Positions 7,401 through 62,476 of a stretch of 64,000 nt of DNA are shown piece by piece. The number at the start of each line of letters is the position of its first letter. The stretch's first letter is position 1. The translations under genes were made by a program, and so were the position numbers. The notes below the pieces were generated by a model, which was not told the DNA's origin, searched no databases, and saw only the letters and a list, made by a program, of their open reading frames with translations. The stretch comes from an uncultured Gammaproteobacteria bacterium (lineage in GTDB: Bacteria; Patescibacteriota; Patescibacteriia; Magasanikbacterales; UBA922): positions 4,602 to 68,601 of the forward strand of contig CAZFTR010000001.1 in NCBI GenBank assembly GCA_964522405.1, written 5' to 3'.

Positions 7401-10400
7401 TCTTGCTACAAACGCCAGATATAGATGGAGAGTACGTGCCTCTCTTGATCCAACTTCAGAATTGACTTCAGAATATGCCTATTCAAATTATGAGTTTAGT
7501 AAACCGCTTGCTCCAAGTAATTTTGCTTCAGAATTTGTAAGTGATAATCAGATTAATCTATCTTGGACAGATGATGTGCAATATGAGAGTGGATTTACAA
7601 TTTATGTTTCCGAGGATGGTAGTGAATATACTCCGATAACAATTGGAAACTCAACAACTACTGTTTCTCAAAATACTACAAATTATAGTTATGCTGATTC
7701 ATCCACAAATCATTCCTATAGTTTTAAGGCAAAATCATATATTGATGCTACAGCCAGTAACTCCGAGTTATTTTCAGATGATTCAGACATGACAGAAGTA
7801 ATTTATACATCACCTGTTGCGCCAACAATGTTAGCAGCAGTACCACTGAATTCAAGTAATATTCAATGGAATTTTACAGATAATTCAAATTATGAATTCG
7901 GGTATAAATTATTTACTGATGGGGGAGGAGAGATATTAAATTCAGAAAATGCAAATCTTGGCTCAATAGTTGAATCTGGCCTTTCTCCAAATACTGAATA
8001 TTCTCGTTATGTAACAACTTACAACAATTCAGGTTCTGCTTCTAGTGCAGTTACTTCAACTTATACAATCTCTGCAACTCCTTCAAACGGTCGTTCAATT
8101 TTCACATCTCAGACAGCTATAACAGTTGCCTGGGATGCAAATGGTAATCCTGATGGAACAGAATACTATATTGTCAATTCAAATACAGGTGCAAATTCCG
8201 GATGGGTAACAAAGCAAGAATTTGAGTTTAGTGATTTTAAATGTGGAAACAGTTATACTTTTGAAATAAAATCAAGAAACGCTCTAAGTCTCGAATCAAA
8301 TAATCATTCACTATCAATAAAAACAGATAATTGTTATGGTGGAGGAAGTCCAGCTACCCCACCTCCGGCATTGCCACCACCTCCAGAACCACCTAAGCCT
8401 GGAGATTTCAGCCTGGTTATAAATGAAGGTGAGCTGATTACAAACAATCTCACGGTAGTGCTTGCTATTGATGGAGGAGAAGATGCTATTATGATGGCTA
8501 TTTCAGAAGATGAAGGTTTTTTCGATACTTCTCAGATTCCATACAGTGAAGCATATGCTTTCCCATTATCAGAAGAAAATGGGACTAAGGTAGTTTATAT
8601 AAAGTTTTTTACAGAAGATGGAACTGAATCCCCAGTTATTTCTTCTGAAATTATTCTTGACACAGAAGCTCCGGAAATAATTGATCTAGAAATAGAAGAT
8701 GAATTTGAATTTGATCAAAATGTAATTGTAAAGGGAACTTCAGAAGCAGGAGCAAATATAATCCCAACTTTAAATAGTTCTCAAAAAACTGCAATTGAAA
8801 TTGATCAAGATGGAAATTGGGAAATTGATTTTGGTATTTTGGATTCAGGTGAATATATACTTGAACTGGTGACTAGAGATGGAGCTGGAAATGAGGGAGA
8901 TACTTATCTAGTTGCTTTTGTAGTTAATGAGGAGCCTATTGAAGAAGAGTCACAACCGCCGTCAGGAACAGCGACCACAACACCTGCGACAACTACCACT
9001 ACTCCGGAAGATGGCGAGGGCGGAGGATTGCCAGATCTTATAGACGAAGTTACAGACGTTATAGAAGATGTTCAGGATGCTGTGGACGAAACATATGAGG
9101 ATATAAAAGAAATAGTCAAAGAAATAATTCCATTGCCAGGACCACAAACAGGAGGTGAGTCTATAATTCCAACAGTGACCACCCAGAGCGGAAGTGAATT
9201 ATTAGGAGATGGACTATTGAGCTTTGGTTCAATAGGTCTGCCAAAAACATTTACAAATCTGGTTACCAGTTTCCCAACACTTGAAAAGACTTTTAGAGAT
9301 TTTGGAGTGAGAAATATAGCAGATCTTCATAGATTGCAGGGTGTAACTCTTGCTCTACCAACTATTGATGAACTTGTACCGGCTGATTCACTTGCTAAGT
9401 CAGCATTGGTTTTAGATACGCTTGAGGGATATACTATTGATGATTTAAGAGACGCTGCAGAAAAATTACCAACAGATGTAGTATTTTTTGAACTCAACAA
9501 TGGAAAGATTGCGCTTGCTCCGGTTGTAAATGGGGCATCATTTAGTGGAGAGGGTCCGACATTTAGAACTATACCAAATCAGGCTGTAAGCATGATTATA
9601 AGACCTTCAGAACCAGTTGAAACAATTACTTCACAGGTTGCGCTTAGAGAGCTTAGAACTAGGCAAGTTGCAGAAGCTCAAAAGAAAACAACCATACAAT
9701 CAGTAATTGATGCATTTGGGGAGACTGTCTCTGCTGTTCAGGTAAATGAAGTATCAGCAGCAGAAATAAAGGATCAAGATTTGGAAAGTACTCCTCAAGA
9801 TGAAAAAGGAAGATTTATTGTTGATCAAGTTGATTTTGAAGATTCAAATGATGATGGGGTTTATGTGGCAGATATAAATACTCCAGAAGTTTTTGGAAGT
9901 TTTGATATTATTACTGATGTTGATTATTCAACTCAGAAGAAGGACAATATCATTACCAATACCATGCTAATTGATCCTGAAGGTTATGTCTTTCACCAGA
10001 CAATTTCCGGAGAGGTTAGATTGGCAAATGCTAAAGTATCACTCTATCATTTTAGTGAAGAGTCTAGTGAATTTGAGCTTTGGGATGCAGAAAAATATGG
10101 ACAGGTAAATCCGCAGATTACAGATGATTCAGGAACTTATGCATTTTTAGTACCAGAAGGTCAGTATTATATTTCCGCACTTGCATCAACCTATAAACCA
10201 TATCAGTCACGAGGATTTACAGTACAGTCAAGTGGAAGAGGGGTACATATAAATATTGGACTTCAAAAATACTTTGATGTTGAACAATTCCTAAATATTG
10301 ATTATATAATTGTTACCATATTGATTGTCCTTTTAATACTTATGGTAAGAAGACTATTCAAAGGGATTAGAAAAATGAAAAAATACGATGATTATAATTA

Positions 10401-10826: not shown

Positions 10827-10900
10827 TTTTCTAAAAAAATTATAAACAGTCGCATTTCAAATGTGACTTTTTTGCTTTTAAAAACTATTACTTAAAAATT

Positions 10901-10972
10901 GCTTCGCCGTCCTCGCCTCTCTTGCTAATCTGCTTTCAGCATTAGCAAGGAGTCTGCGGATTGTCTCATCAA
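10901..10972 (+). repeat. copy 1 of a ~70-nt conserved intergenic element (candidate structured-RNA motif). The other copies are at 36644-36712 and 62304-62372
   Basis: Conserved 5' flank gcttcgccgtcctcgcc, a hairpin with stem CTTGCTAAT/ATTAGCAAG and constant loop CTGCTTTCAGC, and conserved 3' flank ctgcggattgtctcatc. Confidence 0.6.
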
Positions 10973-11039
10973 TCTTTAAGTAATACTTTTTAAAAGCAAA
11001 AATAAACTATATCTTGACCCAGCACCATAAGCCAGAGGG

Positions 11040-11068
11040 TTGACAAAGTCACTTTTTTGTGGTATAAT
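11040..11068 (+). promoter_or_regulatory. sigma-70-like promoter, TTGACA-17nt-TGgTATAAT
   Basis: Perfect -35 TTGACA, 17-nt spacer, and a TG-extended TATAAT -10. It lies about 190 nt upstream of the 11260 gene. Confidence 0.6.
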
Positions 11069-11259
11069 ATATACATCAAAAATAAAAACAAACATAAAAA
11101 TAAACAAATATGAGCCAAATTCGTGGGGTTTCAGATACCCAAATAAAATCTGAAATTTCTTTTGTTTACGCATATCTTCTTACAGGTATCATGCTATTGG
11201 TAGCTGTTTTTTTATTCCTGCCTAGAGTCTCGGTAGGATAAAATATCACAAGTATTTTT

Positions 11260-19441: not shown

Positions 19442-19520
19442 CGCCCATTCCACGTTCGCCGACAAGGGACTAAGAACAGGCGGCGCGCGAGCACCAGCCA
19501 GGCGCGTGTTGATTTACCAG
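19442..19520. repeat. GC-rich 79-nt perfect direct repeat, copy 1
   Basis: Sequence cgcccattccacgttcgccgacaagggactaagaacaggcggcgcgcgagcaccagccaggcgcgtgttgatttaccag is identical to 19875-19953. It is about 60% GC in an AT-rich context. Confidence 0.9.
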
Positions 19521-20209
19521 CCACCACCTTTGTTGTCTCTGCGGTTGGCGATGTGACCTGACAACGCCAGAGGCCAGACGATCCAGGCGATGAGAGCCGG
19601 GAAGCTCAGAACTTCCTCCCTCGGCATGGGGTTCCGCCTCGACTTTTCCATGCCCAGGTCTTTGGCGATGTAGATCAGGGCGAAAATGCCCAAGAACAGG
19701 TATCCGGCCAGGATACTGAGAGCAATCAAATCACTGGTGCTCAAAACCTTTCCTCCTTTCGCGGTTTTGCAATGTTGATTATAACAGTAAATAATTTTTT
19801 TTTCTATGGTTGGTTTCCAAATAAAAACCCTCCTTTTTAAGGGGGTAATAATGGTTAAAATAGTTCCCTTTCGCCGCCCATTCCACGTTCGCCGACAAGG
19901 GACTAAGAACAGGCGGCGCGCGAGCACCAGCCAGGCGCGTGTTGATTTACCAGTCTCCTTTTTTTTCTTCTTTTCGTCTCTGATCTCGATCAGGTAGCCG
20001 GCCAACATGAAGGGGCCTGCCATCAGCCCGAAGAGCCAGATCATGACACCGAATTTACTGGTGTCGGTGGGATTTCTTTCTTCTTCGCCCTTGCCGTGGT
20101 CACCGGTGACGTACAAGAGGGCGCCGAAGCTGAGGATGGCGTAGCCCCCGACCAGGCTGAGAATCATCAGGGCAGTGCTCAAAGTTCTCTCCTTGTTGCG
20201 ATTTTGCAA
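19514..20209 (-). CDS. GC-rich tandem pair of paralogous small two-TM membrane protein ORFs (A ~19955-20194, B ~19514-19754), fused in one frame through an A8 tract
   Basis: The halves LSTALMILSLVGGYAILSFGALLYVTG... and LSTSDLIALSILAGYLFLGIFALIYIA... are clearly homologous. Each is preceded by a conserved leader, atcaaYattgcaaaaYcgc, then AAGGAG, then TTG. Half B stops at the TAA inside the 79-nt repeat (cTGGTAAatc). Half A is out of frame by one base within an A8 run (19959-19966) and reads through. Confidence 0.4.
   Translation of the reverse strand: MQNRNKERTLSTALMILSLVGGYAILSFGALLYVTGDHGKGEEERNPTDTSKFGVMIWLFGLMAGPFMLAGYLIEIRDEKKKKKETGKSTRAWLVLARRLFLVPCRRTWNGRRKGTILTIITPLKRRVFIWKPTIEKKIIYCYNQHCKTAKGGKVLSTSDLIALSILAGYLFLGIFALIYIAKDLGMEKSRRNPMPREEVLSFPALIAWIVWPLALSGHIANRRDNKGGGW
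19875..19953. repeat. GC-rich 79-nt perfect direct repeat, copy 2
   Basis: Exact 79/79 match to 19442-19520. It is followed on the minus strand by a terminator-like hairpin, ccccctTAAAAaggaggg plus a T-run (19822-19846). Confidence 0.9.
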
Positions 20210-20325: not shown

Positions 20326-21297
20326 TTACTGTTCAGGCTCCCAAAGATTAATATATTCAATAGCACTAAGCGCAGCAGTCGCACCTTGCCCAGCAGAAAT
20401 ACTAATTTGTTTAAAAGGAATATTAGTCACGTCTCCGGCAGCGAAAAGTCCAGTACAATTTGTTTTGCAGCGAATATCTACTTCTATTTCTTTTGCTTTG
20501 TTTTTACTGGCACATTCTACAAATCCGGAATTTGGGATCATGCCAATGTGGACCATGACACCATTTATTCCATCAACTTGTTTTTCTTCTTCTGATCCAT
20601 TTTCTTGGTATTTAATACCAGTTACCATTTCATTGCCAAGTATTTCAGAAGTAAAACTATTGTAAATTATTTCTACATTTGATTTTTCTTTTACTTTGTC
20701 TACTAAAATTGTTTCACCTTTTGGAAAGCCTCCTAGATTGGACTCTGGATACTTGGTAACTAGATAAACTTTTTCAGCAATTTCTGCCATCATTAGAGCA
20801 GATTCGAGAGCTGCATTTCCTGCTCCAATAGTTGCTGTTGTTTTTCCTTTGTAGAGTGGTCCGTCACAAACCGTACAAAAAGTCACGCCTTTGTTTTTGT
20901 ATTCATTTTCTCCGGGAATTTTCAGTTCTCTAGGGTGAATGCCACTGGCAACTATCACAGCTTTGGTCTGGTATTCTTTTTTTTCACCGGAAAAATTTTC
21001 TGCGTGAACTACATGGTAGTTTTTTACTTGTTCAATTGATTTTACTTCAAAGCCATTATCAAATTGCACTCCATAGGAAAGAGCATGCTTGTGGAAATTT
21101 TGGGAAAGTTCAATTCCAGAAATAGTTTCAGTTCCAGGCCAGTTCTCTACAACTCCAGACAAAGCAACTTCACCACCAATGTCTTTGCTGACCACCACAA
21201 AATTCAATTTTCTGCGAGCAGCATAAATTGCAGCAGTACAACCTGCAGCTGCAGCTCCGATGATCACTAGATCAAGCATTTTTTCTTGATTTTCCAT
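20326..21297 (-). CDS. trxB: thioredoxin-disulfide reductase
   Basis: FAD-binding motif VIIGAAAAGCTAAIYAARR, redox-active CTVCDG (CxxC), and a second dinucleotide-binding motif. Confidence 0.85.
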   Translation of the reverse strand: MENQEKMLDLVIIGAAAAGCTAAIYAARRKLNFVVVSKDIGGEVALSGVVENWPGTETISGIELSQNFHKHALSYGVQFDNGFEVKSIEQVKNYHVVHAENFSGEKKEYQTKAVIVASGIHPRELKIPGENEYKNKGVTFCTVCDGPLYKGKTTATIGAGNAALESALMMAEIAEKVYLVTKYPESNLGGFPKGETILVDKVKEKSNVEIIYNSFTSEILGNEMVTGIKYQENGSEEEKQVDGINGVMVHIGMIPNSGFVECASKNKAKEIEVDIRCKTNCTGLFAAGDVTNIPFKQISISAGQGATAALSAIEYINLWEPEQ

Positions 21298-22456: not shown

Positions 22457-22591
22457 AATATATTGTTTATATTTAACTAGAAAAAATACTGTGATTATAT
22501 TGTAGCATAGAGATAGTTTGTGATAAAGGGAGTTTATGATTAGGTGAAATTGTGTTATAGTTTAACCAATATCGACTACATGGGGAGATGT

Positions 22592-22756
22592 ATGGTTTCC
22601 AGGTTGGGAAAGGAGCCGGTGGTGCTGGTCAAGGTTGTCTGGGGCGGGCTCAGCCCGGAGGATATTGCGGTTTACCGTCAAATCGCTAGGGACACAGTGG
22701 AGCGTTCCAAGCAAAATCGCTGCCATGGATGCGGCAGACCAAAGAAGGGGGAATGA
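22592..22756 (+). CDS. GC-rich small ORF (54 aa), possibly the product of a ~260-nt GC-rich transcript; could instead be a non-coding RNA
   Basis: A TG-extended -10 (tgtTATAGT) near 22545-22556, SD GGGGAGA 5 nt before ATG 22592, and an intrinsic terminator at 22795-22822. The protein MVSRLGKEPVVLVKVVWGGLSPEDIAVYRQIARDTVERSKQNRCHGCGRPKKGE has no recognised family. Confidence 0.35.
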   Translation: MVSRLGKEPVVLVKVVWGGLSPEDIAVYRQIARDTVERSKQNRCHGCGRPKKGE

Positions 22757-22794
22757 TGGGGGGCGCCACTCCATCTCGGATTGGCAAACTCGAA

Positions 22795-22822
22795 AAAACA
22801 TGAGAGAATCATGTTTTTTTGA
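22795..22822 (+). terminator. intrinsic terminator
   Basis: aaaaaaCATGAgagaaTCATGttttttt. Confidence 0.65.
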
Positions 22823-22843
22823 TATTAAATTTATCAAAACAAA

Positions 22844-22868
22844 AAAACAGCTTTTGCTGTTTTTCAGT
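22844..22868. terminator. bidirectional intrinsic terminator, likely ending the convergent minus-strand GC-rich gene
   Basis: aaaaaaacAGCttttGCTgttttt. Confidence 0.55.
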
Positions 22869-22959
22869 ACTTCCTAAAAATTCAAAAAAAATACTAAGGA
22901 AGGGGTGGGGCGGAAGGAATCACGGCGGGAGTCGCTGCGATCATCGCCCCGAGGGGGGA

Positions 22960-23631
22960 CTAGGCATCGATGGCCTCGAAGATCTGGGATCTGGGGCGGT
23001 CGGGGAGGGCGCGGGGCATGGCGTCGAGGGTCGTCATGTCCGCGTACCAGGCCTGCATGTAGCCGGTGGGACGGTGTTGGTCAGCGCTCGGCGCCGAGGC
23101 CTGGGCTCGGCTCTGGAGCAGGACGGCATTGAGCCGTTCCGGGTCGTTCTGGAACATCCAGAGCAGGAACTTCATCTGAAGCGCCTCCTCCTGGCTCATC
23201 TGGGGGATCTGGCCCGGACTGACCTTGGAGATCCGCTGACCCATGGTACGGAACAGGCCGTCGGCAGCCCTCAGCGCGGCCAGACGGTGCATCATGTTCT
23301 GGTTGTCCGGTTCCACCACTTGACTGCTCTCTTCGAGCGAAGCCCGCACCTTTTCCGGAATCTCTTCGCCGGCGGTTTCGTTGCCAGTGAAGATCAGGCG
23401 GTAGCGTGTCCGTTGACCCACGGGGATCTCGAGAATCAGTGCCAGCGGCGGGTTTTGGGCGATGGTGTACTCCAGGTAACACTCGATCATGTTTTCCGGA
23501 TCCTTGACTCCGGAGTCAGGGGGCTTGCTGTCTTCGTACGACTTCATGGCATTGTGCCAGTGCCAGAGAGTCAAGAAGAAGCCCAGGATCAGGACTGTGA
23601 TGAGGAGAGTCAGGAGGGTGAGAGAGTCCAT
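22960..23631 (-). CDS. GC-rich hypothetical protein with an N-terminal TM anchor (224 aa)
   Basis: Start MDSLTLLTLLITVLILGFFLTLW is preceded by AAGGAGG. Amino-acid composition is protein-like, whereas the overlapping plus-strand ORFs are G/R/L-rich antisense artefacts. About 58% GC. Confidence 0.55.
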   Translation of the reverse strand: MDSLTLLTLLITVLILGFFLTLWHWHNAMKSYEDSKPPDSGVKDPENMIECYLEYTIAQNPPLALILEIPVGQRTRYRLIFTGNETAGEEIPEKVRASLEESSQVVEPDNQNMMHRLAALRAADGLFRTMGQRISKVSPGQIPQMSQEEALQMKFLLWMFQNDPERLNAVLLQSRAQASAPSADQHRPTGYMQAWYADMTTLDAMPRALPDRPRSQIFEAIDA

Positions 23632-23759
23632 ATCGTGCCTCCTTGAGGCTTCCGGTTCTAGTCTGTTCAGTATTGTTGTCTTTTTTTGATAAAAAGTCAA
23701 GTCTGGAGTTTAGATTGACAAAACAACAATTTTGTCCTAATATGGGTATACAATTATAA

Positions 23760-23935: not shown

Positions 23936-24083
23936 TTTATTATTAGTAAATTTGTTTAACCGTATTTATTATAAAATTCAACTCAGCTCTACAGAAATAA
24001 TTTGATATTCAGTTTAAATTGATCGCTCAACGTTTCATTTTATAATAAATACGGTTAAATTAACTCAAGCTATTAATTCATGT

Positions 24084-27053
24084 ATGCCTTACGAATCAAA
24101 TAAACATGAACTTGAAATAAAAAAGTTCTGGGACAACAACAAAATTTTTGAAAAATCTATAAATGAGCGTCCGGAAGATCAGCCCTATGTTTTTTATGAT
24201 GGTCCACCATTTGCAACCGGCTTGCCACATTATGGACATATAGTTGCCAGTTTGATGAAAGATGTTGTTCCCAGATATTGGACTATGCAAGGAAAGCGGG
24301 TTGAGCGTCTTTGGGGTTGGGATTGTCATGGTTTGCCGATTGAAAATATTGTTGAAAAAGAAATTGGATCAAAAAGTAAACAAGATATTGAAGAAATGGG
24401 AGTTGAAAAATTCAATGAGTCCTGTCGCTCAAAAGTTTTACATTATATAGATGAATGGAAAAGGACTATTCAAAGACTTGGACGCTGGGTTGATATGGAC
24501 AATGCCTACAAAACCATGGACAAAGATTATATGGAGTCAGTTTGGTGGGTTTTCAAAGAGCTTTGGGACAATGGTTTTGTTTATAAAGGATATAAATCAA
24601 TGCATGTTTGTCCACGTTGTGAGACAACACTTTCTCAGCAAGAAGTAAGTGAAGGTTACAAAGACATAAAAGATCTTTCCGCAACTGTAAAGTTTAAAAT
24701 TACCTCTACAATTTCAGATATTCATCAAGACCTGGGTGTGTGTAATGATCTCTTTGTTCTAGCTTGGACAACTACCCCTTGGACACTTCCTGGAAATGCC
24801 CTTTTGGCAGTTGGTGAGGATATTGAATATACAGTTGTTAAATTTGAAGGCTCTTGTTATGTGGTTGCCAAAGAAAGATTAATTGAAGTTTTTGATGAAA
24901 GAGAATTTGAAGTTGTTCAGCAATTAAAAGGAAAAGACCTGTTAGGTTTGGAATATGAGCCATTGTTTCCATATTATACTGATACAGAAAATGCTTTTAA
25001 GGTTGTGGCAGGAGATTTTGTAAGCACAGAAGAAGGAACAGGCGTGGTGCATATAGCTCCGGCTTTTGGTGAGGATGATTATCAAACAGGAAAAAAAGAA
25101 AAAACCGGCTGGGTCCAGCATGTTTCAATGAATGGAAAATTTAAGCCGGAAGTTGCAGATTTTGCAGGTCAGCAAGTTAAGCCAATAGAAGATCCTCAAA
25201 AAACAGATATAGAAATAATTAAATGGCTTGCTCACAATGAAAAGTTATTTTCAAAGAAAAAATATCTACATAGTTATCCGCATTGTTGGAGATGTGACAC
25301 CCCTCTAATAAATTACGCAACAGATTCCTGGTTCGTAAATGTAGAAAAATTAAAAAAGGACGCGCTTAAACATGCCAAAGAAATAAATTGGTCTCCAGAA
25401 CATATGAAAGAGGGGCGTTTTGGGAAGTGGCTAGAAGGAGCACGAGATTGGTCAATTTCTCGCCAGCGTTTTTGGGCATCAGTAATTCCAATTTGGGAAT
25501 GTGATAAGACAGGTGAATTTCATGTTATCGGTTCTGTAGAAGAACTTGAGAAATTAACCGGAGAAAAAATAGAAGACCTACATAAGCATACAGTAGATAA
25601 ACTAACTTGGAAAAATCAAAAAACAGGAGGAACTATGAAACGAATTCCAGATGTTCTTGATTGTTGGTTTGAAGCAGGTTCAATGCCTTACGCCCAAGTT
25701 CATTATCCATTTGCCAATCAAGAAAAATTTGAAGCAAGTTTTCCAGCAGAATTTATTGCCGAAGGACAAGATCAAACACGAGCCTGGTTTTATTATCTGC
25801 ATATTATTGCAACAGGTGTAAAACAAAAACATGCATTTAACAATGTGGTGGTAAATGGAATAGTTCTAGCAGAAGACGGAAAGAAGATGAGTAAGAAATT
25901 ACAAAATTATCCAGACCCAATGGTTGTGCTGGAGAAATACGGAGCAGATGCGCTTAGATACTACTTGGTGAGTTCACCGGTGATGCAAGCAGAAACTTTG
26001 AATTTTTCAGAAGAAGGTGTTCGAGAAGTTTTTAATAAGGTTGTCAATACACTTTGGAATGTAGGTAGTTTTTATGAGATGTTTGCAGATGAAAATTCAA
26101 AGTTCGATTTAGAATTGGCAAAGAATTCAAAAAATGTTTTGGATAAATGGATACTTGCCAAACTACATAGATTGCTTGAAGAAGTTACAAAAGAAATGAA
26201 TGAATACAGACTTAATGATGCATCTCGCCCAATTTTAGATTTTATATTAGATCTTTCACAGTGGTATGTGCGCAGATCAAGAGATAGATTTAAAGGTGAT
26301 GATGAAGAAGATAAAAAAGCAGCACTTGCTACGCTCCATGAAGTTCTTTTAACTCTTTCAAAAATCATGGCACCGTTTACTCCGTTTATTGCAGAGAAGA
26401 TTTATAAAGAAGTTGGTGGTGAGAAAGAATCTGTTCATTTGGATATGTGGCCAGAGGTGGATCAAAATATTTTGCTAGCAAACACGAATCTCTTAGTGGA
26501 TATGGAATCAGTCAGAGAAGTAGTTAAGCTTGGAAATTCTCTTAGAAAAGAAAACTCATTGAAAGTTAGACAGCCGCTTGCAAGTTTAAAAGCAGTTGCT
26601 ACTCTCTCAGGAGATAAAGATTATCTTGAGCAATATCAAAAAATTATTTCAGAAGAATTAAATATTAAGAAAGTTGAGTTAAGAAATTTACCTGGAAATA
26701 AAGAAATGGAAGAGATGAGAAGTTTGGCAAATGATAAAATTAAAGTTGCCGAAGATCAAAGATCTATCGTAGTCCTTAACACAGAAATAACCCCACAACT
26801 CGCCAAAGAAGGACTTCTCCGCGAAACAATCCGCGCCATAAATCAAATCAGAAAACAACAAGGCTTGATAATGCATGACCAAGTTCTTGTAGAATTTTCA
26901 ACAGAAGATAAAGTATTAAATGAAATCTTTACAAAAGCAGAATTTGCAGAAGAATTAAAAAAACAAACACTCACAAGTGAAATCAAATCAGGTGGAACTG
27001 AAGAAATAGAAATAGATAAAAGAAAAATTAAGATAATTGTGAAAAAAGCGTAA
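24084..27053 (+). CDS. ileS: isoleucine--tRNA ligase
   Basis: HIGH motif PHYGHI, KMSKS motif KMSKKL, WSISRQRFWAS and the Zn-binding CPRCE segment. 989 aa. Confidence 0.9.
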   Translation: MPYESNKHELEIKKFWDNNKIFEKSINERPEDQPYVFYDGPPFATGLPHYGHIVASLMKDVVPRYWTMQGKRVERLWGWDCHGLPIENIVEKEIGSKSKQDIEEMGVEKFNESCRSKVLHYIDEWKRTIQRLGRWVDMDNAYKTMDKDYMESVWWVFKELWDNGFVYKGYKSMHVCPRCETTLSQQEVSEGYKDIKDLSATVKFKITSTISDIHQDLGVCNDLFVLAWTTTPWTLPGNALLAVGEDIEYTVVKFEGSCYVVAKERLIEVFDEREFEVVQQLKGKDLLGLEYEPLFPYYTDTENAFKVVAGDFVSTEEGTGVVHIAPAFGEDDYQTGKKEKTGWVQHVSMNGKFKPEVADFAGQQVKPIEDPQKTDIEIIKWLAHNEKLFSKKKYLHSYPHCWRCDTPLINYATDSWFVNVEKLKKDALKHAKEINWSPEHMKEGRFGKWLEGARDWSISRQRFWASVIPIWECDKTGEFHVIGSVEELEKLTGEKIEDLHKHTVDKLTWKNQKTGGTMKRIPDVLDCWFEAGSMPYAQVHYPFANQEKFEASFPAEFIAEGQDQTRAWFYYLHIIATGVKQKHAFNNVVVNGIVLAEDGKKMSKKLQNYPDPMVVLEKYGADALRYYLVSSPVMQAETLNFSEEGVREVFNKVVNTLWNVGSFYEMFADENSKFDLELAKNSKNVLDKWILAKLHRLLEEVTKEMNEYRLNDASRPILDFILDLSQWYVRRSRDRFKGDDEEDKKAALATLHEVLLTLSKIMAPFTPFIAEKIYKEVGGEKESVHLDMWPEVDQNILLANTNLLVDMESVREVVKLGNSLRKENSLKVRQPLASLKAVATLSGDKDYLEQYQKIISEELNIKKVELRNLPGNKEMEEMRSLANDKIKVAEDQRSIVVLNTEITPQLAKEGLLRETIRAINQIRKQQGLIMHDQVLVEFSTEDKVLNEIFTKAEFAEELKKQTLTSEIKSGGTEEIEIDKRKIKIIVKKA

Positions 27054-28141: not shown

Positions 28142-28569
28142 CTAACACTCCGAAGCTACTGCCCCGGCCCCGTGCCGGGGAGCTCCGAGATCTCTCTCGG
28201 TTATATCTAGCAAATTTTGCAAAATATAATCGAGAGAGATTTTTGAGTTTTAAATGTCAGCTTTCAAATTATACAAACGAATTATATAATTTGGAACTGT
28301 CCCGAGGCTGAAGCTTCGGGTGAGTTTCTGGCGCTGTTGCGACCTGAGTCGCGAGGCGCAGTTGGTCTTGCTCTTAGAGTGTTGGGGGAGCTGATTGACC
28401 CTACCCCTTCTACTGATTTCGAACTTGTCGCACAGCCGGTTTTCTGGCTCTCTACCTACTCAATTGCCAACTCGTGGCATCCACATCTAGATTTCCCCGA
28501 AAGTTCAGAGAAACTCTCGGTCCACAGGAGCGGAGTTAAATCCGCATCTTCATCGATTAGAAATCGATG

Positions 28570-28872
28570 CTACTTGCTTCCCTCCTGGTGTTTCACCAGA
28601 CGTCGATGGACTTTCTCATCGGCGTAGTCCAGCTCGAGTCGGAGCATCGCGTCCTCGAAGGAGCTCAGCGCTTTCTCGACGCTGTCCGGCGTCGTCGTCT
28701 CGGTGGTGGTGATCGACTGGGAGATCGGATCGGCCCATGCATGGAGGATGCGCGTGGCACGTTTTCCGTACTTGTGGCGCGCGCCTTCGGGCATGTTGCG
28801 CATGACAGAGGTCAGTCGGTTCTCGAGCGCCTCGAGACGGACCTGGAAAAGATATTGCTCGCTTTTCTTCAT
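28570..28872 (-). CDS. GC-rich hypothetical protein (~100 aa; start ATG 28872 chosen by analogy to its paralogous leader, alternative GTG at 28893)
   Basis: A leader paralogous to the 153-aa gene: hairpin CCCTGGt-aaagg-GCCAGGG, then gcagtRgcttYggag, then 7-9 nt, then ATG. Confidence 0.45.
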   Translation of the reverse strand: MKKSEQYLFQVRLEALENRLTSVMRNMPEGARHKYGKRATRILHAWADPISQSITTTETTTPDSVEKALSSFEDAMLRLELDYADEKVHRRLVKHQEGSK

Positions 28873-29111
28873 CTTTCTTTTCTCCAAAGCCACTGCCCTG
28901 GCCCTTTACCAGGGAGCCCAAGAGATTTCCCTTGGTTAAGCGAAAAAAGCAGATAACCGCTTAAATTAGGCAAAAGCCTAAATTTTCGCTAAATCAAGGG
29001 AAATTTCAGTGAATTGTCAATAACGGCTAACAATTAATTATAGCAGGTTTTGACGGTTTTGTCAATGAGTGGTAAAATTAGATAACGACTTCAAAAATTA
29101 ACTAAAAAATT

Positions 29112-30596: not shown

Positions 30597-30625
30597 GTAG
30601 GGATCGCTTACGCGTTTATTAGGCT

Positions 30626-30670
30626 GGCTTGGGGTATTCGGATTTACGGATGATTCAGATAATACGGATC
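30626..30670 (+). repeat. copy a of a second dispersed intergenic repeat family (modules GGCTTGGGGTATTCGGAT and GGATTTACGGAT..ACGGATC)
   Basis: Both modules recur at 56858-56943 in a different order. The region is noticeably more GC-rich than its surroundings. Confidence 0.6.
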
Positions 30671-30736
30671 GAACAATGTGTTGGTAAATCATTATTCACT
30701 TGTTAATTATTAATTGTTAGTTGCTAGTTAAGTAGT

Positions 30737-31324: not shown

Positions 31325-31541
31325 TAAATAAAAAATCGGTGTTGAGCCGATTTTTTTATTTATGGGTATTTTAAAATAATTGGGTATGTCGCTTCACATC
31401 CCCGAGCCAAAGTACAGAGTGGTTAGTTCAGCTCTCGCCATTAATGCGCGGTACTGGCGAAAGACCTACGCATCTTCAATAAGGACACACTCTCCTCCTG
31501 AATAGGAGCCGAAGCACCTTCCCATAAAGATGTGAAGCGAC
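31325..31541 (-). ncRNA. candidate small RNA (~215 nt) with its own promoter, a 13-bp closing helix and an intrinsic terminator
   Basis: Minus-strand promoter TTGACG(31576-31571)-17nt-TAACAT(31553-31548), TSS near 31541. A 13-bp closing helix pairs GUCGCUUCACAUC with GAUGUGAAGCGAC (31529-31541 / 31388-31400) around a GC-rich ~130-nt core containing a GCUUCGGC hairpin. It ends at terminator tcggctcaacaccga plus a T-run (31336-31350; this hairpin also terminates ruvA). No ORF. Confidence 0.5.
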
Positions 31542-31595
31542 AGGAGTATGTTAGCACTTTGGTTTTTTGGCGTCAAAAAAGTGAGAAAAAGTTTC

Positions 31596-34086: not shown

Positions 34087-36582
34087 TCAAAGCAAAGCAA
34101 TACTCGCCACCTTATCCCCCTCAACCTTAAATCTCATCATTCTCACTCCTTGAGTAGCTCGACCAAGCGTGGAAACACTCTTCAGCGGTGTTCTTACCAC
34201 TTGCCCGTTTACAGAAATCATCATCAGGTCTTGCTCTTCTGTATTGTTGATTACTCTGGCACCAATTATCTCTCCGGTTTTGCTGGTAATTGACATGGTC
34301 TTAATTCCGCTTCCTCCGCGACCTTGTACTTTATACTCTTTCAAGGCCGTGCGTTTTCCTAGTCCGTTTTCTGAAACCACTAGAAGTTCAAATACTTTTT
34401 TGTTGATTAGATCTGGTTGGGCTATTCCCATTCCTACTATCTGATCTTTGGATTTTAGTCTGATTCCTCGAACTCCACTGGCTGTTCGTCCCATTGCTCT
34501 TACTCCTGATTCTTTGAAGCGAATTGCTTGGCCCAGTTTGGTAATCAGCACTATATCGTCTTTCCCTGCTGATGGGCGAACCCATTCCAGATAATCGTCT
34601 TCTTTTAGTTTTAGAGCAATCAATCCTGATCTCCGCACATTTCCAAAGTCTTCTATTTTTGTTTTCTTGATGGTTCCTTTGTTGGTTACCATGACCAGGA
34701 ATTTGTATTTGCTCATATCATCCATGGAGAGTATGGCTGATACTTTTTCATTTGGTGCCAATTGCAAGAAATTTACCAGTGCTTGTCCTTTTGCTGTTCT
34801 GCTGGTTTGTGGTATTTCATAAGCTCGCAGCAAAAATACTCGTCCTCTGGTGGTAAAGAATAGCAAATTGTCATGAGTATTGGTTGAGATCAAGTGTTCT
34901 ACCACATCTTCTTCTTTGGTGGTTAGCCCCATAACACCTTTTCCACCTCTTCCTTGGGTTTTGAAGGTGTCTGTGGGCATTCTTTTGATATATCCGTCTT
35001 TTGTTCCAAGGATTATAGTTGGTTCATTTGGTACCAGGTCTTCTACACTAAATTCTTTTACTCCGTGAGCTATGATTGCTGTGCGTCTTTCGTCTGCGTA
35101 TTTTTCTTTTATTCCAGCAATATCTTTTTTGATAATCCCTAATATTTTCTTTGGACTTTTGAGGATTGATTCTAGCTCTGCAATTAGTTTTTTCTTTTCT
35201 TTTAATTCATCATCTATTTTCTTTCTTTCCAAATTGGCCAGCTGTTGTAGCTTCATTTCAAGAATGGCAACTGTTTGTCGCTCTGTAAATTTGAATTTCT
35301 TCATCAAATTAGCTTTGGCCTCTTCTTTGTCTTTTGATTTTCTAATTGTATTGATCACCGCATCTATTTTGTCCAGTGCTTTTTTCAAGCCTTCAAGAAT
35401 ATGGGCGCGATCTTTTGCTTTGTTTAATTCAAACTCTGTTCTTCTCCTTATAACTTCTTGTCTGTGCTTGATATATTCTTCTAGTACTGTTTTTAAATTC
35501 AAAACTCTTGGTTGAATTCCATCAATCAGAGCCAGCATGTTGACATGAAATGTTGTTTGCAAGTCTGTTAATTTGAAAAGTCTATTTAGGATTTTTTTGG
35601 CGTATGCGTCTTTTTTTAGTTGGATTACTACCCGAACCCCTTCTTTGTTTGATTCATCACGTAGATCTTTTATTCCTTCTATTTTCTTTTCTTGTACTAG
35701 TGTGGCAATTTTCTCTAGAAGTTTTGATTTGTTTACTTGATAAGGAACTTCTGTCACTACAATTTGATAATATCCGGTTTTTAATTCCTGAATATCTGTT
35801 TTAGCGCGAACCACTATTCCTCCGCGTCCGGTGGCATATGCTGCGGCAATGTCTTTTTTATTATAAATAATTCCACCGGTAGGGAAGTCTGGTCCTTTTA
35901 CATGTTTTACCAGTTCATCAATGGTTGTTTTCGGATCTTCGATCAAGGCTGCAATTCCATCACAAAGTTCTCCAAGATTATGTGGAGGTATATTGGTGGC
36001 CATTCCAACTGCAATACCCATGCTTCCGTTGAGTAGAAGATTTGGAAGTTTACTTGGTAGTACTCTTGGTTCTTTTCCTGATCCATCATATGTTGGACCA
36101 TAATCCACTGTTTGTTTTTCTATGTCTAGAAGCATTTCTTCTGCTATTGCTTCCAGTTTTGCCTCTGTATAACGCATGGCAGCTGCTCGATCTCCGTCCA
36201 TTGAACCGAAGTTTCCTTGTCCTCGAACCAGGGTATTTCTCATGCTAAAGTATTGCGCCATTCTCACCATTGAGTCATAAATTGCAGCATCTCCATGAGG
36301 ATGGTATTTTGCCATTACTTCACCTACTACATGAGCTGATTTGCGGAATTTTGAATTATGTTTAAGGCCGATACTCCACATAGCATAGAGGATTCTTCTG
36401 TGAACCGGTTTGAGTCCATCTCGAACGTCTGGTAATGCGCGTGATACTATTACACTCATTGCATAATCAAGATAGGATGTTTGCATTTCATCTACCAGAC
36501 TAATTGGTTCTACTTTTCCAATTGACCCCATTTCTGCAACTTCTTCTCCCTTTTTTGGAGTTTTGATCTTTTTCAATGCCAT
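34087..36582 (-). CDS. gyrA: DNA gyrase subunit A
   Basis: AAAMRYTE active-site Tyr region, KYHPHGD, and a GyrA-box-like QGRGGKG in the C-terminal beta-pinwheel. 831 aa. Confidence 0.9.
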
Positions 36583-36643
36583 ATATGTTTTTATATTTAT
36601 TTCTTCTTTGGTTATAATTTTAGAGTATATTTTATTAAACTAG

Positions 36644-36712
36644 CTTCGCCGTCCTCGCCTCTCTTGTTGATTTGCTTTCAGCATCAACAAGGTGGCTGTG
36701 GATTGTCTCATC
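36644..36712 (+). repeat. copy 2 of the ~70-nt conserved intergenic element
   Basis: gcttcgccgtcctcgcctct-CTTGTTGAT-ttgctttcagc-ATCAACAAG-gtggctgtggattgtctcatc. The stem carries compensatory changes relative to copy 1. Confidence 0.6.
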
Positions 36713-36805
36713 TACTTTAATAAAATATACTCTAAAATTATAACAACTGATTTCAATAAAAAGGGATCTTATTAGAATCATCCCGCCTATATTGTAGTTT
36801 GTAAA

Positions 36806-37540
36806 TTATTCACTGTCAATTTCTATAGTAGAAGTTGTGATTTCTATTGTGCTGGTTACTGAGTCAGTGCTGGTGGACATTTTTTCTAATATTAGATTGG
36901 CAAAACTTTCGCGAATGGCAGCAATCAATGATTGATCTTCATCTTTATTTTTGATTTCATCAATTCTTTTTTCCAGTGTTTCATCTGATTTGGTGATTAT
37001 TTTCATGGTTTCCTGCAGATCATCTTTGCTTTCACTGAGAAGTCTTTCTTCTAGTCCAGTTTCTTGCTTTGTGTCATATAGAAAAGTTTTTATATTGAAA
37101 AACCAAATGATAAATATTGCCAGAGAAAAAATTATCACTCCAGCCCACATCCAAACAAATAGATTTTTTCCATGTACAACAGGTTTTGCCATTTGTTTTT
37201 GTGGTTTTTGGAATTTAACTGTAGGTTTTGTAGGTGGCAGTTCAATATTTGCTGGTTTTTGAGCAGGTGGCTGTTTGCTTGGGGTGAGAACCGGTCTTTT
37301 CTTAATATCCTGCAATATCATGCTCGGAATTTCATCAACCATTTTTTTGATTGCTTTTTTTTCTTCTAATTTTTCTAGTTTTTCAGTAGGTGGAGTTTTT
37401 TCTAGAACTTTTTTCACTCTTTTTTTTCTGGGCTTAGTTTTCTTTTTTGCAACAGTTTTTTTTGCAGGTTTTTTTGGAGCAATTTTCTTTTTTTTGCCTT
37501 TTGCCTCTGCTTTGGGTTTTTTTGTTTTTTTGACAGGCAT
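36806..37540 (-). CDS. hypothetical protein with a Lys/Pro/Ala-rich (histone-H1-like) N-terminus, a central TM helix and an acidic C-terminus
   Basis: KKPKAEAKGKKKKIAPKKPAKK..., TM LFVWMWAGVIIFSLAIFIIWFF. Confidence 0.5.
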   Translation of the reverse strand: MPVKKTKKPKAEAKGKKKKIAPKKPAKKTVAKKKTKPRKKRVKKVLEKTPPTEKLEKLEEKKAIKKMVDEIPSMILQDIKKRPVLTPSKQPPAQKPANIELPPTKPTVKFQKPQKQMAKPVVHGKNLFVWMWAGVIIFSLAIFIIWFFNIKTFLYDTKQETGLEERLLSESKDDLQETMKIITKSDETLEKRIDEIKNKDEDQSLIAAIRESFANLILEKMSTSTDSVTSTIEITTSTIEIDSE

Positions 37541-50661: not shown

Positions 50662-52959
50662 TTAATTTGAAGATTCCGGAGTTTGATCAGGATTGTTTGC
50701 TGAGTTAAAAGCACTGTCTACGTCTTCTGGCTTTCCTGTAGAAAGTGGCTTGTCACCCACAGCTCCGAGAAGAGTTTTTCTTCTTAGTGCTTCTTTTCTT
50801 TTTGCAGCTGTGGTAAGCGGTTTGGCAGTTCTAGGATCAAAGCGTTTGCCAACCACGACTCTACCTTCTGGTCTCTTTGGGCTGGCTTTTACGCCAGGCA
50901 CTTCCAAATAACGAGCATCTTGCACAATGGCTGCTCTATCTGCGTCTGTAAGTTCTTTTATCTTTGGTCTTCCTTGAGTGTCTGTAGTCTCTCTTTTTCG
51001 ACTTGCAGGTCTTTTTGCTTTGGCTGGCTTTGATTGTGGTGGTTTTCTTGAGGCTGTATCTTCTTCTTCATAATCTTCATATAAATCAGCGTCAGCAGTG
51101 CCTGTATTAACTCTAGGCACTTTCAAATAGGGAGCATCTTGTACAATGGCTGCTCTATCTGCGTCTGTAAGTTCTTGTACTTCTCCAATTTCCGGAGGTA
51201 GTTCAGGTGGTCCTTCTTTTGGTTCAAATGTTTTTCTTTTTCTTGCTCCAAGTCCTGTAGGTCTTTTTGTTTTGGTAGGAGTTTTTGCCACTCTTACTCT
51301 TTTTGGGGCTTTTGCTGGTTCTGGTTTTTCTTCTGGCTCAGCTGTTTCAAGTGGCTCGCCAGTGTCAACTCGACGCTCAGTTTTTCCTGGACTCTCTTTG
51401 CCTCCAGGTACTTCGAGGTAAGGAGCATCTTGAACTAGCCTGGCACGATCTTCGTCTGTAAGCTCCTGTGGTTCAGGTTCAAAAGATACTTCTCCTGTCT
51501 TAGGTTGCGATTGATCTTTTTGTGTGGTAGGTTCTGCTTCAGCTTTTGTTGGAGCTTCAGTATCTGCAGGTGTCATAGGGCTAGTTACTTGAGCTTCTAA
51601 TGGTTCTTTTGGTTCTGGTGGAGGACCATCCGTAGATTCTTCCGTTGGGATTGGAAGCTCTTCTGGTTTTTCATCCGGTTTAATTATTTTAAGAATACGT
51701 TCTGTCTCTGCTTCTGCTTCTGCTCCATAGTCTGGAGCTAATGCTACTTTTCCTTCTGTTGGTGGTTGCATTGCAGCTCTTGCTTTGGCATCTGCTAATC
51801 CATCTACTGCTGAATCTGTTTTTAAAATTGCACCCATTCCCAGGCCTGCTGCAATTGCTGCTGCCCAGCGCATAAATTTTCCTTGTTCTTTAATTCCGCC
51901 TCCACCTCCGCCACCTTTTTTTCTTTGTGGCATAGGGATTACATCTGCGGCTTGGTCTGTTTGGGGTGTTTCTGGTTCTGGCTCAGTTGTGGTTTGTTCA
52001 GATTCTCTGGTAGCAAAAGCTTCAGTAAGTTGACTTACGAGGTTTGCGAAATCTTGATTGTTTGCAAGAAGTTTGTTATAAAGTCTTCCAGATCCAAATC
52101 TAGGTTCTCCATTTGGCTTCAGTTTTACGGTTTTTTGTTTTCCGTTTAATTCAAAAGCAACTGAATTTATTTGATCTATGATTTGTTCCGGGGTTAGTGG
52201 GGGAGTTTCGATTTCCTCTATGCTCTGTTCAAGTGCTTCAGCTCTGGCGTGAAGTGCCGCTGCATCTGCCTTTATTTCTTCTGGAGTGACATCTGCTGAT
52301 CCAGCTTCTAATGCTTGTATTTTTGCTTCTAGGGCAGCAGTTTGAGCTTCAATTGAATCATCAACTTGCGGGGTTTCTACACCCTCCACCACAGTTGCAA
52401 TTTTTGAAGTAGGCATTGTTCTTTCTTCTGGTACAATCTCTGCGAATGGAATTTCTTCTTCCTCATCCGGTACAATCTCTGCCAATGGGATTTCCTCCTC
52501 AATTTCTTCAGCCTTCGGGGCTTCTAGAACTTCAGCTCCGGTGATTCCTCCTTTGGCAACAGCTTTATCAGCTTCTTCTTGTGAAAGAATATCTGCATCT
52601 GTTATTTCTGTGACAGATTCTTTAAGTCTTTCCAGTTTTTCTACAGGCTGTATAGGTTTTCTCTCTGAGGGGCCTTCAAGCGCAGTTAGAAGTGTGTCAA
52701 TTCTAGTTTGCGCAGCCATAACTTTTTCTGCTATATCGGGATCCATCATTTCCATAGGTTCTGTTGGTACAAGCGCCTCATCTTCTGGATCTAAGCTCTT
52801 TTCTAACTTGATAGCGCCATCTTTAAAAAGCTCAACTCCTGTTTCTTTTTTTGTTTGTTCAATAATGCCTTTTATCGCTTGTTTTACCTCTGTGCTGGTT
52901 ATTTCACCTAATTTTATTTTTTGATTGACTTCTTCACCACTAGTTTCTCCTGATTGCAT
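50662..52959 (-). CDS. hypothetical acidic Pro/Glu/Thr-rich protein with four copies of an ELTDADRAAIVQDAPYLEVPG repeat and one TM segment
   Basis: 765 aa. Repeats LTDEDRARLVQDAPYLEVPGG, ELTDADRAAIVQDAPYLKVP and ELTDADRAAIVQDARYLEVPG. TM segment MRWAAAIAAGLGMGAIL. A Gly8 tract is encoded by a G/C homopolymer-rich run. Confidence 0.55.
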   Translation of the reverse strand: MQSGETSGEEVNQKIKLGEITSTEVKQAIKGIIEQTKKETGVELFKDGAIKLEKSLDPEDEALVPTEPMEMMDPDIAEKVMAAQTRIDTLLTALEGPSERKPIQPVEKLERLKESVTEITDADILSQEEADKAVAKGGITGAEVLEAPKAEEIEEEIPLAEIVPDEEEEIPFAEIVPEERTMPTSKIATVVEGVETPQVDDSIEAQTAALEAKIQALEAGSADVTPEEIKADAAALHARAEALEQSIEEIETPPLTPEQIIDQINSVAFELNGKQKTVKLKPNGEPRFGSGRLYNKLLANNQDFANLVSQLTEAFATRESEQTTTEPEPETPQTDQAADVIPMPQRKKGGGGGGGIKEQGKFMRWAAAIAAGLGMGAILKTDSAVDGLADAKARAAMQPPTEGKVALAPDYGAEAEAETERILKIIKPDEKPEELPIPTEESTDGPPPEPKEPLEAQVTSPMTPADTEAPTKAEAEPTTQKDQSQPKTGEVSFEPEPQELTDEDRARLVQDAPYLEVPGGKESPGKTERRVDTGEPLETAEPEEKPEPAKAPKRVRVAKTPTKTKRPTGLGARKRKTFEPKEGPPELPPEIGEVQELTDADRAAIVQDAPYLKVPRVNTGTADADLYEDYEEEDTASRKPPQSKPAKAKRPASRKRETTDTQGRPKIKELTDADRAAIVQDARYLEVPGVKASPKRPEGRVVVGKRFDPRTAKPLTTAAKRKEALRRKTLLGAVGDKPLSTGKPEDVDSAFNSANNPDQTPESSN

Positions 52960-56169: not shown

Positions 56170-56841
56170 ATGCCTCAAAATCTCCCTCCAATATTACCAG
56201 GATCCAGTTCTTCATCAAAACCAGCATCAGGTATAAGTAGAGCCCAGGATCTGTCAGTTACCAAGCTTCAACAGAAAAAAGATCGAGAATCTGCTGTAGT
56301 TTCTACTAGTCAAGCTATACGTCGTACTCAGACAGGTCGGCCAATAACATCTGTGAGTCGTATAGGTCGGGAAGAAGCTAAGACTTCTATATCACGACCT
56401 GATAGAGAAGTGAGATCTATTTATGATTCAGCTGAGCAGCAAATAGGTGATGATTACAGAAGGCACGGCCATATCAGGAGGTTGATCAAGGAGAGACAGC
56501 AAGCAGCAGTTGAAGAGAAAAAGCGCGTTGAGGAAGAGTCAAAAGGATTTTTTATTGGTACTGGAAAGAGATATAGAAAAACTGGTCCAAGCACTCTTAA
56601 GAAAAAATTAAGAAGAATGGTAAGAAAAGATCCAGCACAATATCGAAATATTTCTTTGAAAGACAGAGAGAAATTTGAAGATATTGTGGATACTAGCTTA
56701 AAACATAAACGCACAGGTACTAGAATAAACAGAAAAGACCGAATCAAGATGAGAAGAAAAGCATTTAAATCATGGAAAGGTGGGGAGATTAGCAAGCAAG
56801 ATTACAAAGATTTCAAAAAACTTATCTATCGTTTGGAGTAG
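56170..56841 (+). CDS. hypothetical basic protein
   Basis: 223 aa, R/K-rich. No recognised family. Confidence 0.45.
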   Translation: MPQNLPPILPGSSSSSKPASGISRAQDLSVTKLQQKKDRESAVVSTSQAIRRTQTGRPITSVSRIGREEAKTSISRPDREVRSIYDSAEQQIGDDYRRHGHIRRLIKERQQAAVEEKKRVEEESKGFFIGTGKRYRKTGPSTLKKKLRRMVRKDPAQYRNISLKDREKFEDIVDTSLKHKRTGTRINRKDRIKMRRKAFKSWKGGEISKQDYKDFKKLIYRLE

Positions 56842-56857
56842 TAAATCAACAGGTGTA

Positions 56858-56943
56858 CTGCGGATTTACGGATAATTGAAACGGATCATTGGCGCGTTGA
56901 TGAAACTGGCTTGGGGTATTCGGATAGATTATTTTATCCGAAT
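56858..56943 (+). repeat. copy b of the second dispersed intergenic repeat family
   Basis: ctgcGGATTTACGGATaATTgAaACGGATCattgg...ctGGCTTGGGGTATTCGGATagattattttATCCGAAT. The tail forms an 8-bp hairpin ATTCGGAT/ATCCGAAT. Confidence 0.6.
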
Positions 56944-62259: not shown

Positions 62260-62303
62260 ATGTTGTTTTGACTTTTTGCGTTTGATTTTTTCTCTAAATC
62301 CTC

Positions 62304-62372
62304 CTTCGCCGTCCTCGGTTCTATTGTTGATCTGCTTTCAGCATCAACAATGTGCCTGCGGATTGTCTCATG
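62304..62372 (+). repeat. copy 3 of the ~70-nt conserved intergenic element
   Basis: ttcgccgtcctcggttct-ATTGTTGAT-ctgctttcagc-ATCAACAAT-gtgcctgcggattgtctcatg. The stem is again kept by compensatory changes. TGACTTTTTGC lies upstream, as in copy 1. Confidence 0.6.
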
Positions 62373-62476
62373 ATTTTTTAGAGAAAAAATCAATATAATT
62401 CATAAATTTATTCTACTACACATTTCAGAGATCAAATATAGATCTTTCAGCTATCTCCGAAGATGGATGCCCTGCG

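Follow-up and report, generated by a model that had tools for sequence, protein, structure and literature searches.

A candidate interspersed hairpin repeat with copy-specific stems upstream of gyrA in a Candidatus Magasanikbacteria genome

Introduction

To our knowledge, the genomes of the CPR (Patescibacteria) are small and tightly packed, and their non-coding DNA is almost unexplored. In the genome studied here, a structured element lies directly upstream of gyrA, within a stretch of 64,000 nt that we call the window. What is this element, and does it have a role at gyrA? A preliminary description had treated it as the second copy of a repeat with a covarying stem, and had proposed that an RNA from its plus strand runs antisense to the gyrA 5′ UTR region. 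The repeated element and its covarying structure are no chance match, but a specific link to gyrA and a plus-strand antisense RNA are unsupported.

Three copies of a conserved core

The element upstream of gyrA (copy 2) has a core of 68 nt with about 50% GC, against about 35% GC overall. Its position was given correctly in the preliminary description, including the 62 nt between the first base of the core and the gyrA start codon (36582). The relation to a first copy also held, as the 24-mer that opens the element, GCTTCGCCGTCCTCGCCTCTCTTG, has exactly two occurrences in the window (10901 and 36643), with none expected (100 shuffles). A third copy, more diverged than the other two, was newly found by fuzzy search, and identity among the copies is 85–90% (Table 1). 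A covariance model (R1) was built from the three copies and run unfiltered over the 64-kb window. It matched exactly the three copies, all on the plus strand with 104–106 bits (106 bits for copy 2), and nothing else in the window scored above 15 bits.

The copies differ at 12 of the 68 core columns, all in the middle of the core. The 14-nt 5′ end CTTCGCCGTCCTCG, the 12-nt 3′ end GGATTGTCTCAT, and the 12-nt apex TGCTTTCAGCAT are free of variable columns. Of the 12, eight form four pairs with both sides changed, one converts a C-G pair to U.G, and the remainder are in bulges or loops. Three pairs of the copy 2 inner hairpin covary between copies. The stem variant that had been described as compensating, TTGTTGAT/ATCAACAA versus TTGCTAAT/ATTAGCAA, is a genuine double compensatory change. 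Since the variation is confined to the middle of the core and is mostly paired, the core is not in neutral decay, and its fold and its end and apex sequences are under selection. The core fold is preserved through compensatory changes, while the ends and the apex are constrained in sequence. A small protein or peptide gene was rejected because the sole ATG-led frame, on the minus strand, runs into a stop after 14 codons in copy 1, 23 in copy 2, and 16 in copy 3.

Table 1. Features of the element and of the gyrA locus (positions in the window)
Feature	Position	Strand	Description
Copy 1	10869–11002		Arms and core together
Copy 1 core	10902–10969		68 nt
Copy 1 arms	10869–10901 and 10970–11002		33 nt, 94% complementary
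Copy 2 core	36644–36711		Subject of this study; conserved, GC-rich, 68 nt; found by repeat search and R1
Copy 2 inner hairpin	36663–36691		9-bp stem (36663–36671 with 36683–36691), invariant apex TTTGCTTTCAGC
Copy 2 arms	36611–36643 and 36712–36744		33 nt, 97% complementary
Copy 3 (new)	62282–62393		Arms and core together
Copy 3 core	62304–62371		68 nt
Copy 3 arms	62282–62298 and 62377–62393		17 nt, 100% complementary
gyrA	34087–36582	−	831-aa ORF; DNA_topoisoIV (1.9e-166) and six DNA_gyraseA_C repeats; outside the element
Promoter-like TTGACA-17-TACAAT	36791–36819	−	11/12, consensus match only; upstream of the element

Copy-specific arms and the fold of each locus

Each core is abutted on both sides by a near-perfect AT-rich inverted repeat that is private to that copy. 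In copy 3, two further pairs adjoin the core beyond the 17-nt arms. All copies share one register of the arms, and a small zone of mismatches lies 3–5 nt from the core. No other inverted repeat in the window is as long as the arms of copies 1 and 2, and every empty palindrome in it is shorter and less perfect than either of these 33-nt pairs; an inverted-repeat search found many intergenic palindromes with 14–32-nt arms. No arm sequence occurs elsewhere in the window. Compared between copies, the arms are mostly no closer than shuffled sequence (the lowest of 18 uncorrected p values were 0.02 and 0.04). The left arm of copy 1 starts exactly at the T-run of the upstream terminator-like hairpin. 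At gyrA, the left arm of copy 2 stops 28 nt short of the ATG, and the outer end of the right arm, read on the minus strand, is the extended −10-like sequence TGTTATAAT.

With the core and its flanking inverted repeats, each locus folds as one hairpin of 112–136 nt. The three folds have energies of about −40 to −59 kcal/mol and z values of −8 to −14. The copy 2 locus reaches −58.7 kcal/mol on the plus strand and −58.8 kcal/mol on the minus strand (z −13.8 and −14.3), copy 1 reaches −48.6 and −56.4 kcal/mol, and copy 3 reaches −40.6 and −38.7 kcal/mol. In an ungapped 112-column alignment of the three copies, 94.8% of the cells are paired, compared with 34–52% with a slid partner. Both sides changed in 17 of its 45 pairs, and none of 500 shuffles reached the observed values. 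The arms are almost wholly Watson-Crick: across the three arm pairs, one position can form G.U, on the minus strand of copy 1 only. Such near-complete Watson-Crick pairing is the look of a palindrome at the DNA level.

The gyrA locus and the strand of the element

Copy 2 lies between two minus-strand genes. The neighbor of gyrA had been called a gene for a Lys-rich membrane protein, and the product of the minus-strand ORF at 36806–37540 is indeed rich in Lys and has a single hydrophobic segment. For gyrA, the best promoter-like site is TTGACA-17-TACAAT, read from 36819 to 36791, and the hairpin between it and copy 2 is weak. As this site is upstream of copy 2, the gyrA transcript should carry the reverse complement of the element in its leader. 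Judged from these sequences, the most likely transcript at gyrA would be a gyrA leader that includes the reverse complement of the orientation in the preliminary description.

All three copies are intergenic. Copy 3 is between two minus-strand genes as well, one kinase-like and the other dut, whose ATG is 22 nt away. The cluster around it comprises dCMP deaminase, kinase, dut, thyA, folA, and tmk. Since the cores share their orientation and these genes are on the minus strand, the mRNAs at copies 2 and 3 carry the reverse complement of the orientation described earlier. Copy 1 is between two plus-strand genes. It follows a terminator-like hairpin with a T-run (10848–10868) and precedes a perfect promoter-like site with a TG motif (TTGACA-17-TATAAT, 12/12, 11040–11068). 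Copy 1 would be transcribed only by read-through, in the sense opposite to copies 2 and 3, and its neighbor genes encode membrane proteins and a SpoU methylase. No Shine-Dalgarno-like sequence was visible before gyrA, dut, or the ORF at 11110. A common regulon was rejected because gyrA, dut-thyA-folA-tmk, and the genes for membrane proteins and SpoU methylase have no shared function and the relative orientation differs. The copies are placed regardless of gene orientation or gene function.

The earlier statement that the element is on the strand opposite to gyrA is a convention, as the sequence carries no net strand signal. For the plus strand there are one variable pair that is U.G (A.C on the minus strand) and two invariant G.U pairs. 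A second apparent plus-strand U.G was discounted because an alternative pairing of the apex leaves that base bulged. For the minus strand there is an arm pair of copy 1 that is G.U (A.C on the plus strand), and copy 1 folds better on this strand by 8 kcal/mol. The evidence is balanced, and neither strand is favored.

No promoter-like site was found around copy 3, and scans at all three copies found no promoter-like sequence common to them. With flanks that differ from copy to copy, neither strand has a conserved promoter. An intrinsic terminator was also rejected: a terminator scan gave no terminator-like site at any copy, and no U-tract or T-run follows either arm on either strand of the three copies. 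The only terminator-like site nearby is the one at 10848–10868, which is outside copy 1.

A plus-strand RNA acting as a cis-antisense regulator of the gyrA 5′ UTR would be consistent with a promoter-like TTTATA-17-TATAAT at 36590–36618 (10/12, a consensus-level match) and with the U.G pair and the two invariant G.U pairs kept on the plus strand. However, this promoter-like site is within the copy-specific left arm of copy 2 and has no counterpart at copies 1 and 3. The other copies are beside unrelated genes, relatives regulate gyrA without the element, and the copy 1 arm pair favors the minus strand. With no conserved promoter and the strand evidence tied, we consider this antisense RNA very improbable.

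A small RNA gene has more to recommend it, and we still regard it as unlikely. Here, an RNA of about 70 nt would be freed by a double-strand-specific RNase that cuts the variable flanking stalk, as long flanking stems are cut in the processing stalks of rRNA. The conserved core on top of a 17–33-bp stem of variable sequence is consistent with this proposal, as are the strongly constrained ends and apex and the purine-rich junction loop of the minus strand (5′-AUGA/GAAG-3′), which may form tandem G.A pairs. Against it, no promoter is conserved, and the orientation relative to the transcribed strand varies among the copies, so that read-through would yield opposite strands. Copy 1 is flanked by a terminator and a promoter, and there is no homologue in the relatives examined or in Rfam.

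Relatives and sequence collections

The gyrA sequence assigns the genome to Candidatus Magasanikbacteria, and the nearest other gyrA proteins are 80–84% identical. Four relatives have a Lactamase_B_3-family gene, a gene for a small protein, and gyrA in a common order. Their gap before gyrA is 2 nt (L004), 16 nt (L014), 39 nt (L005), or 203 nt with an unrelated hairpin (L003), and the element is absent from this site in all four. The covariance model found no copy over 67 kb of three relatives. The element at gyrA would thus appear, from these junctions, to be an addition to a gene junction that is normally tight. A gyrA-specific role, as implied by the preliminary description, finds no support in these relatives or in copies 1 and 3, which flank unrelated genes. 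The adjacency to gyrA looks incidental.

At gathering thresholds, Rfam 15 gave a single tRNA in the whole window and nothing at the element. At E ≤ 10, the only matches around the element were far sub-threshold models of plant and other microRNA precursors and one snoRNA, which reflect the long hairpin shape and not homology. Phage, plasmid, and IMG/VR searches gave no match to the element. Scans with two-part exact patterns covered 185,579 GTDB representative genomes and the JGI metagenomes and found chance matches only, in GC-rich DNA; as exact matches were required, diverged relatives may have been missed. The absence from the relatives and the collections suggests that the element is lineage-specific. 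As for a guide function, 22-mers from the arms of copies 1 and 2 were not found in IMG/VR as antiviral guides would be, and 10-mers of the core had no meaningful targets within the window at up to one mismatch.

Four Logan samples contain the same strain with an identical copy 3, and Logan contigs span copies 2 and 3 without interruption. In one sample (SRR8146441), the right arm of copy 3 has an assembly break to either side of it (L010 ends at 62408 and L019 starts at about 62374). These breaks leave about 33 nt unassembled, while the three other samples are continuous; low coverage or heterogeneity is possible.

Comparison with known elements

We compared the element with known families of repeats and structured RNAs. 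Like REP/BIME and REPIN sequences, it is short, extragenic, multi-copy, GC-richer than its surroundings, able to form imperfect hairpins, and found in either gene orientation; all three copies are extragenic, repeated, and hairpin-forming. In mRNA, REP/REPIN sequences can act as generic stabilizing stem-loops, as we propose for this element. In REP/REPIN, however, the paired arms are conserved, whereas the element has a conserved apex and long copy-specific arms. REP/REPIN are mobilized by RAYT transposases. Pfam found no transposase, RAYT, or other mobilizing gene among the scanned ORFs of the 64-kb window, and the density of the element is low, at about one copy per 21–26 kb.

Bacterial MITEs (Correia, RUP, BOX, ERIC) are also non-coding, intergenic, about 100–150 bp long, foldable, and lineage-restricted, and the orthologous site in relatives is likewise empty. 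Their terminal inverted repeats are conserved across copies and they have direct target-site duplications, whereas the element has neither. Its arms are unique and its junctions are inverted and not direct (TTG/CAA, TAG/CTA, CTC/GAT). Unlike MITE ends, its flanks are inverted repeats that reach the core and differ in each copy. Insertions of the IS1397/ISKpn1 type into the loops of palindromic units produce an insert flanked by the arms of a palindrome, as in the element. Their targets, however, are a conserved REP family and their insert is a full IS with a transposase, whereas the element has unique AT-rich arms and a non-coding insert of 68 nt.

The tigRNA units of TIGR-Tas systems, found in CPR bacteria, also have variable palindromic closing stems and, in some clades, a loop hairpin (Faure et al., 2025; Xu et al., 2026, preprint). 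In two reports, TIGR-Tas stems are described as palindromic throughout, variable, and conserved only beside the boxes, with an extended loop hairpin in a CPR TasR clade and CUU/UG boxes in PateTasR (PMC12045711; bioRxiv 10.64898/2026.09.09.750476). The three copies could then be orphan units of a TIGR-Tas-like (box C/D-like) system, each a stem-loop guide RNA. Their sequence-variable palindromic stems and loop hairpin match these descriptions, and the plus-strand core opens at the stem junction with a CUU-N9-CG interval that is exactly the invariant 14-mer; the chance of CUU-N9-YG at a given position is about 1 in 500, a post hoc figure. However, tigRNAs form tandem arrays beside a tas gene and contain two variable 8–12-nt spacers. 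The copies are single units 25.7 kb apart, and their interior is 85–90% conserved and paired, with variable positions that covary as base pairs and no variable spacers. The second box C-N9-box D interval is absent, no box D is beside the 3′ stem, and the window has no tandem array by a Nop-domain tas gene. In the window, Pfam gave no match to a Nop-domain or Tas-like protein, even at E ≤ 10 for nine ORFs without annotation and one with only a weak YtxH match. An orphan TIGR-Tas-like unit therefore seems highly unlikely to us.

Several other identities were considered and rejected. A box C/D kink-turn RNA has RUGAUGA and CUGA boxes and a three-base bulge followed by tandem G.A pairs beside a terminal stem. 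The minus strand has AUGAGAC and CGAAG in a symmetric 4 × 4 loop with possible tandem G.A pairs but no three-base bulge, and a complete UGAUGA is present in copy 1 alone, with the help of arm bases. For a hammerhead, twister, or other self-cleaving ribozyme, the arm bases on which a hammerhead-like UGAUGA...GAA would rely are not the same in every copy, and a three-way junction is missing. Domain V of group II introns has a similar 9-bp stem, 2-nt bulge, and GAAA-type loop, but the AGC triad is lacking and the upper helix is too short. An H/ACA-like guide was rejected because the ACA box after the stem is missing in copies 1 and 3 and the supposed pocket covaries as pairs.

Spacing and a possible role as a chromosomal site

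The copies are 25,742 and 25,660 nt apart. The probability of two gaps so similar is about 0.003 for three random points in 64 kb, a post hoc value from three copies. All three cores point the same way, along the strand with rising cumulative GC skew. The element could be a chromosomal site at the DNA level, such as a core bound by a protein (e.g., a topoisomerase, condensin, or nucleoid protein) or a cruciform, placed regularly and one way along the replichore. The spacing, the common orientation, the placement independent of gene orientation, and the near-perfect Watson-Crick arms are in line with such a site. With three copies, however, the spacing and orientation may be coincidence. The core as double-stranded DNA is not palindromic, no binding protein is known, and nothing comparable was seen in the relatives examined. 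We find a DNA-level site of this kind unlikely, although the near-equal spacing and common orientation are also not predicted by random insertion.

Proposed origin of the element

Our preferred reading, to which we give a probability of roughly 50%, is that the element is a lineage-specific, non-coding, interspersed hairpin repeat of Candidatus Magasanikbacteria (CPR). It would behave like REP, BOX, or MITE sequences, with a selected structure and local stems. Each copy would consist of two parts: the conserved GC-rich core, and stems made of site-specific flanking AT-rich DNA. The core itself would be an imperfect hairpin with the covarying 9-bp inner stem, the invariant apex, and the invariant 14-nt and 12-nt ends. 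The element would have entered intergenic sites as DNA. As the material is only three copies, all in one strain, with no empty-site allele, this mobility is inferred and not shown.

The arms were probably not inherited together with the core, since they are as unlike each other as random AT-rich sequence, whereas the least constrained core positions differ by 25–33%. They may have a local origin by one of two routes. AT-rich palindromes that already existed may have received the core at their dyad, or the core hairpin may nucleate intrastrand template switching, by which one flank is copied in inverted form. The copying of an inverted flank would fit two facts better than insertion into existing palindromes, namely that two arm pairs (33 nt) exceed any empty palindrome of the window in length and perfection and that the left arm of copy 1 starts at a T-run. 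The first of these facts argues against simple insertion.

If the element is such a repeat, its effect on genes would be generic. Read-through of the operons at copies 2 and 3, on the minus strand, would place a very stable stem-loop 22–28 nt before the start codon. This stem-loop would protect RNA ends or serve processing, and would not be a gyrA-specific switch. Stem-loops of the REP type are a known analogy for the stabilization or processing of transcripts.

Against the repeat reading, conserved terminal inverted repeats and a target-site duplication are both absent, and we know of no described repeat family with copy-specific near-perfect arms. The element appears to be undescribed so far, with an architecture unlike known repeat families. 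A dedicated function would likewise be in keeping with how strongly the core sequence is constrained. A more speculative proposal, which we regard as a long shot, is that the core is a hairpin seed that induces the inverted copying of one of its flanks. The palindromes would then be self-grown, in one orientation and at intervals of about 25.7 kb, and would be domain markers at the DNA level (e.g., related to cruciforms or topoisomerase).

Other structured and repeated DNA

Other structured or repeated DNA was seen in the window and in the relatives. A sub-threshold T-box leader (RF00230, 23748–23921, plus strand, 40.5 bits, E 2.4e-6) is upstream of ileS (24084–27053). A hairpin at 23955–24059, between the T-box terminator and the ileS ATG, has 28-nt AT-rich arms (93% complementary) around a 49-nt center unrelated to the core, and its arm ends 24 nt before the ATG. 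In L005, a hairpin of unrelated sequence (20784–20858, 27-nt arms) follows a T-box terminator before ileS and lies 13 nt before the ATG. In L003, a hairpin just upstream of the ileS start (19926–20080), also of unrelated sequence, has arms made of AATTAACA repeats around a promoter-like TTGACA. Long hairpins before the ileS start are thus present in this genome and at least one relative, possibly two, and the clade may be characterized by long hairpins in leaders whose sequence changes fast. Repeats of the TTGTTAATTG type are directly before the start codons of ruvA (window 30695–30736), L003 gyrA (9950–10000), and L003 ileS (19921–19960).

A second GC-rich intergenic repeat occurs at 30601–30680 and 56860–56935, with 43 nt at 81% identity and rearranged CGGAT/TACGGAT motifs. 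Its copies are just after the plus-strand pepA and the ORF at 56170–56841, and are 26,282 nt apart, near the spacing of the main element. Downstream of ruvA, a perfect 14-nt inverted repeat (31387–31542) closes a GC-rich segment of 128 nt that may be a structured RNA; Rfam gave no match to it at E ≤ 0.1. A region of about 1.3 kb (22460–23750), immediately upstream of the T-box and ileS, has a GC content of about 0.47, compared with about 0.36 elsewhere. It has overlapping ORFs on both strands without a Pfam match and may be non-coding or foreign. At the end of the ORF at 28567–28956, a hairpin with 25-nt arms (28918–29011, 88% complementary, −41.5 kcal/mol, z −8.0) encloses two small hairpins.

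A tRNA-Arg(TCT) at 106–178 adjoins a tyrosine recombinase (219–1217, Phage_integrase 1.3e-44), which could be XerC/D or mark the border of an integrated element. Logan contigs with this recombinase gene are short (about 2.5 kb) and end inside the adjacent gene for a 2995-aa protein. A 102-nt direct repeat (19442–19543 and 19875–19976, 90% identity, 433 nt apart) spans the junction of a PMT-family gene and its upstream ORF, and three 73-nt repeats (50888–51470) are within the 765-aa ORF at 50662–52959.

Conclusion

For gyrA, the outcome is in practice a negative one: annotation of the element as a regulator of gyrA should wait for expression data. Its conserved apex and long, site-specific, near-perfect stems do not fit the architecture of REP, MITE, or tigRNA sequences. 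If the stems are made locally, a palindrome-generating process would be able to reshape intergenic regions and mRNA leaders in these organisms. If the core did act as a seed for its own stems, it would be a chromosomal element of a new kind, self-extending and periodically spaced, with one copy directly upstream of gyrA.
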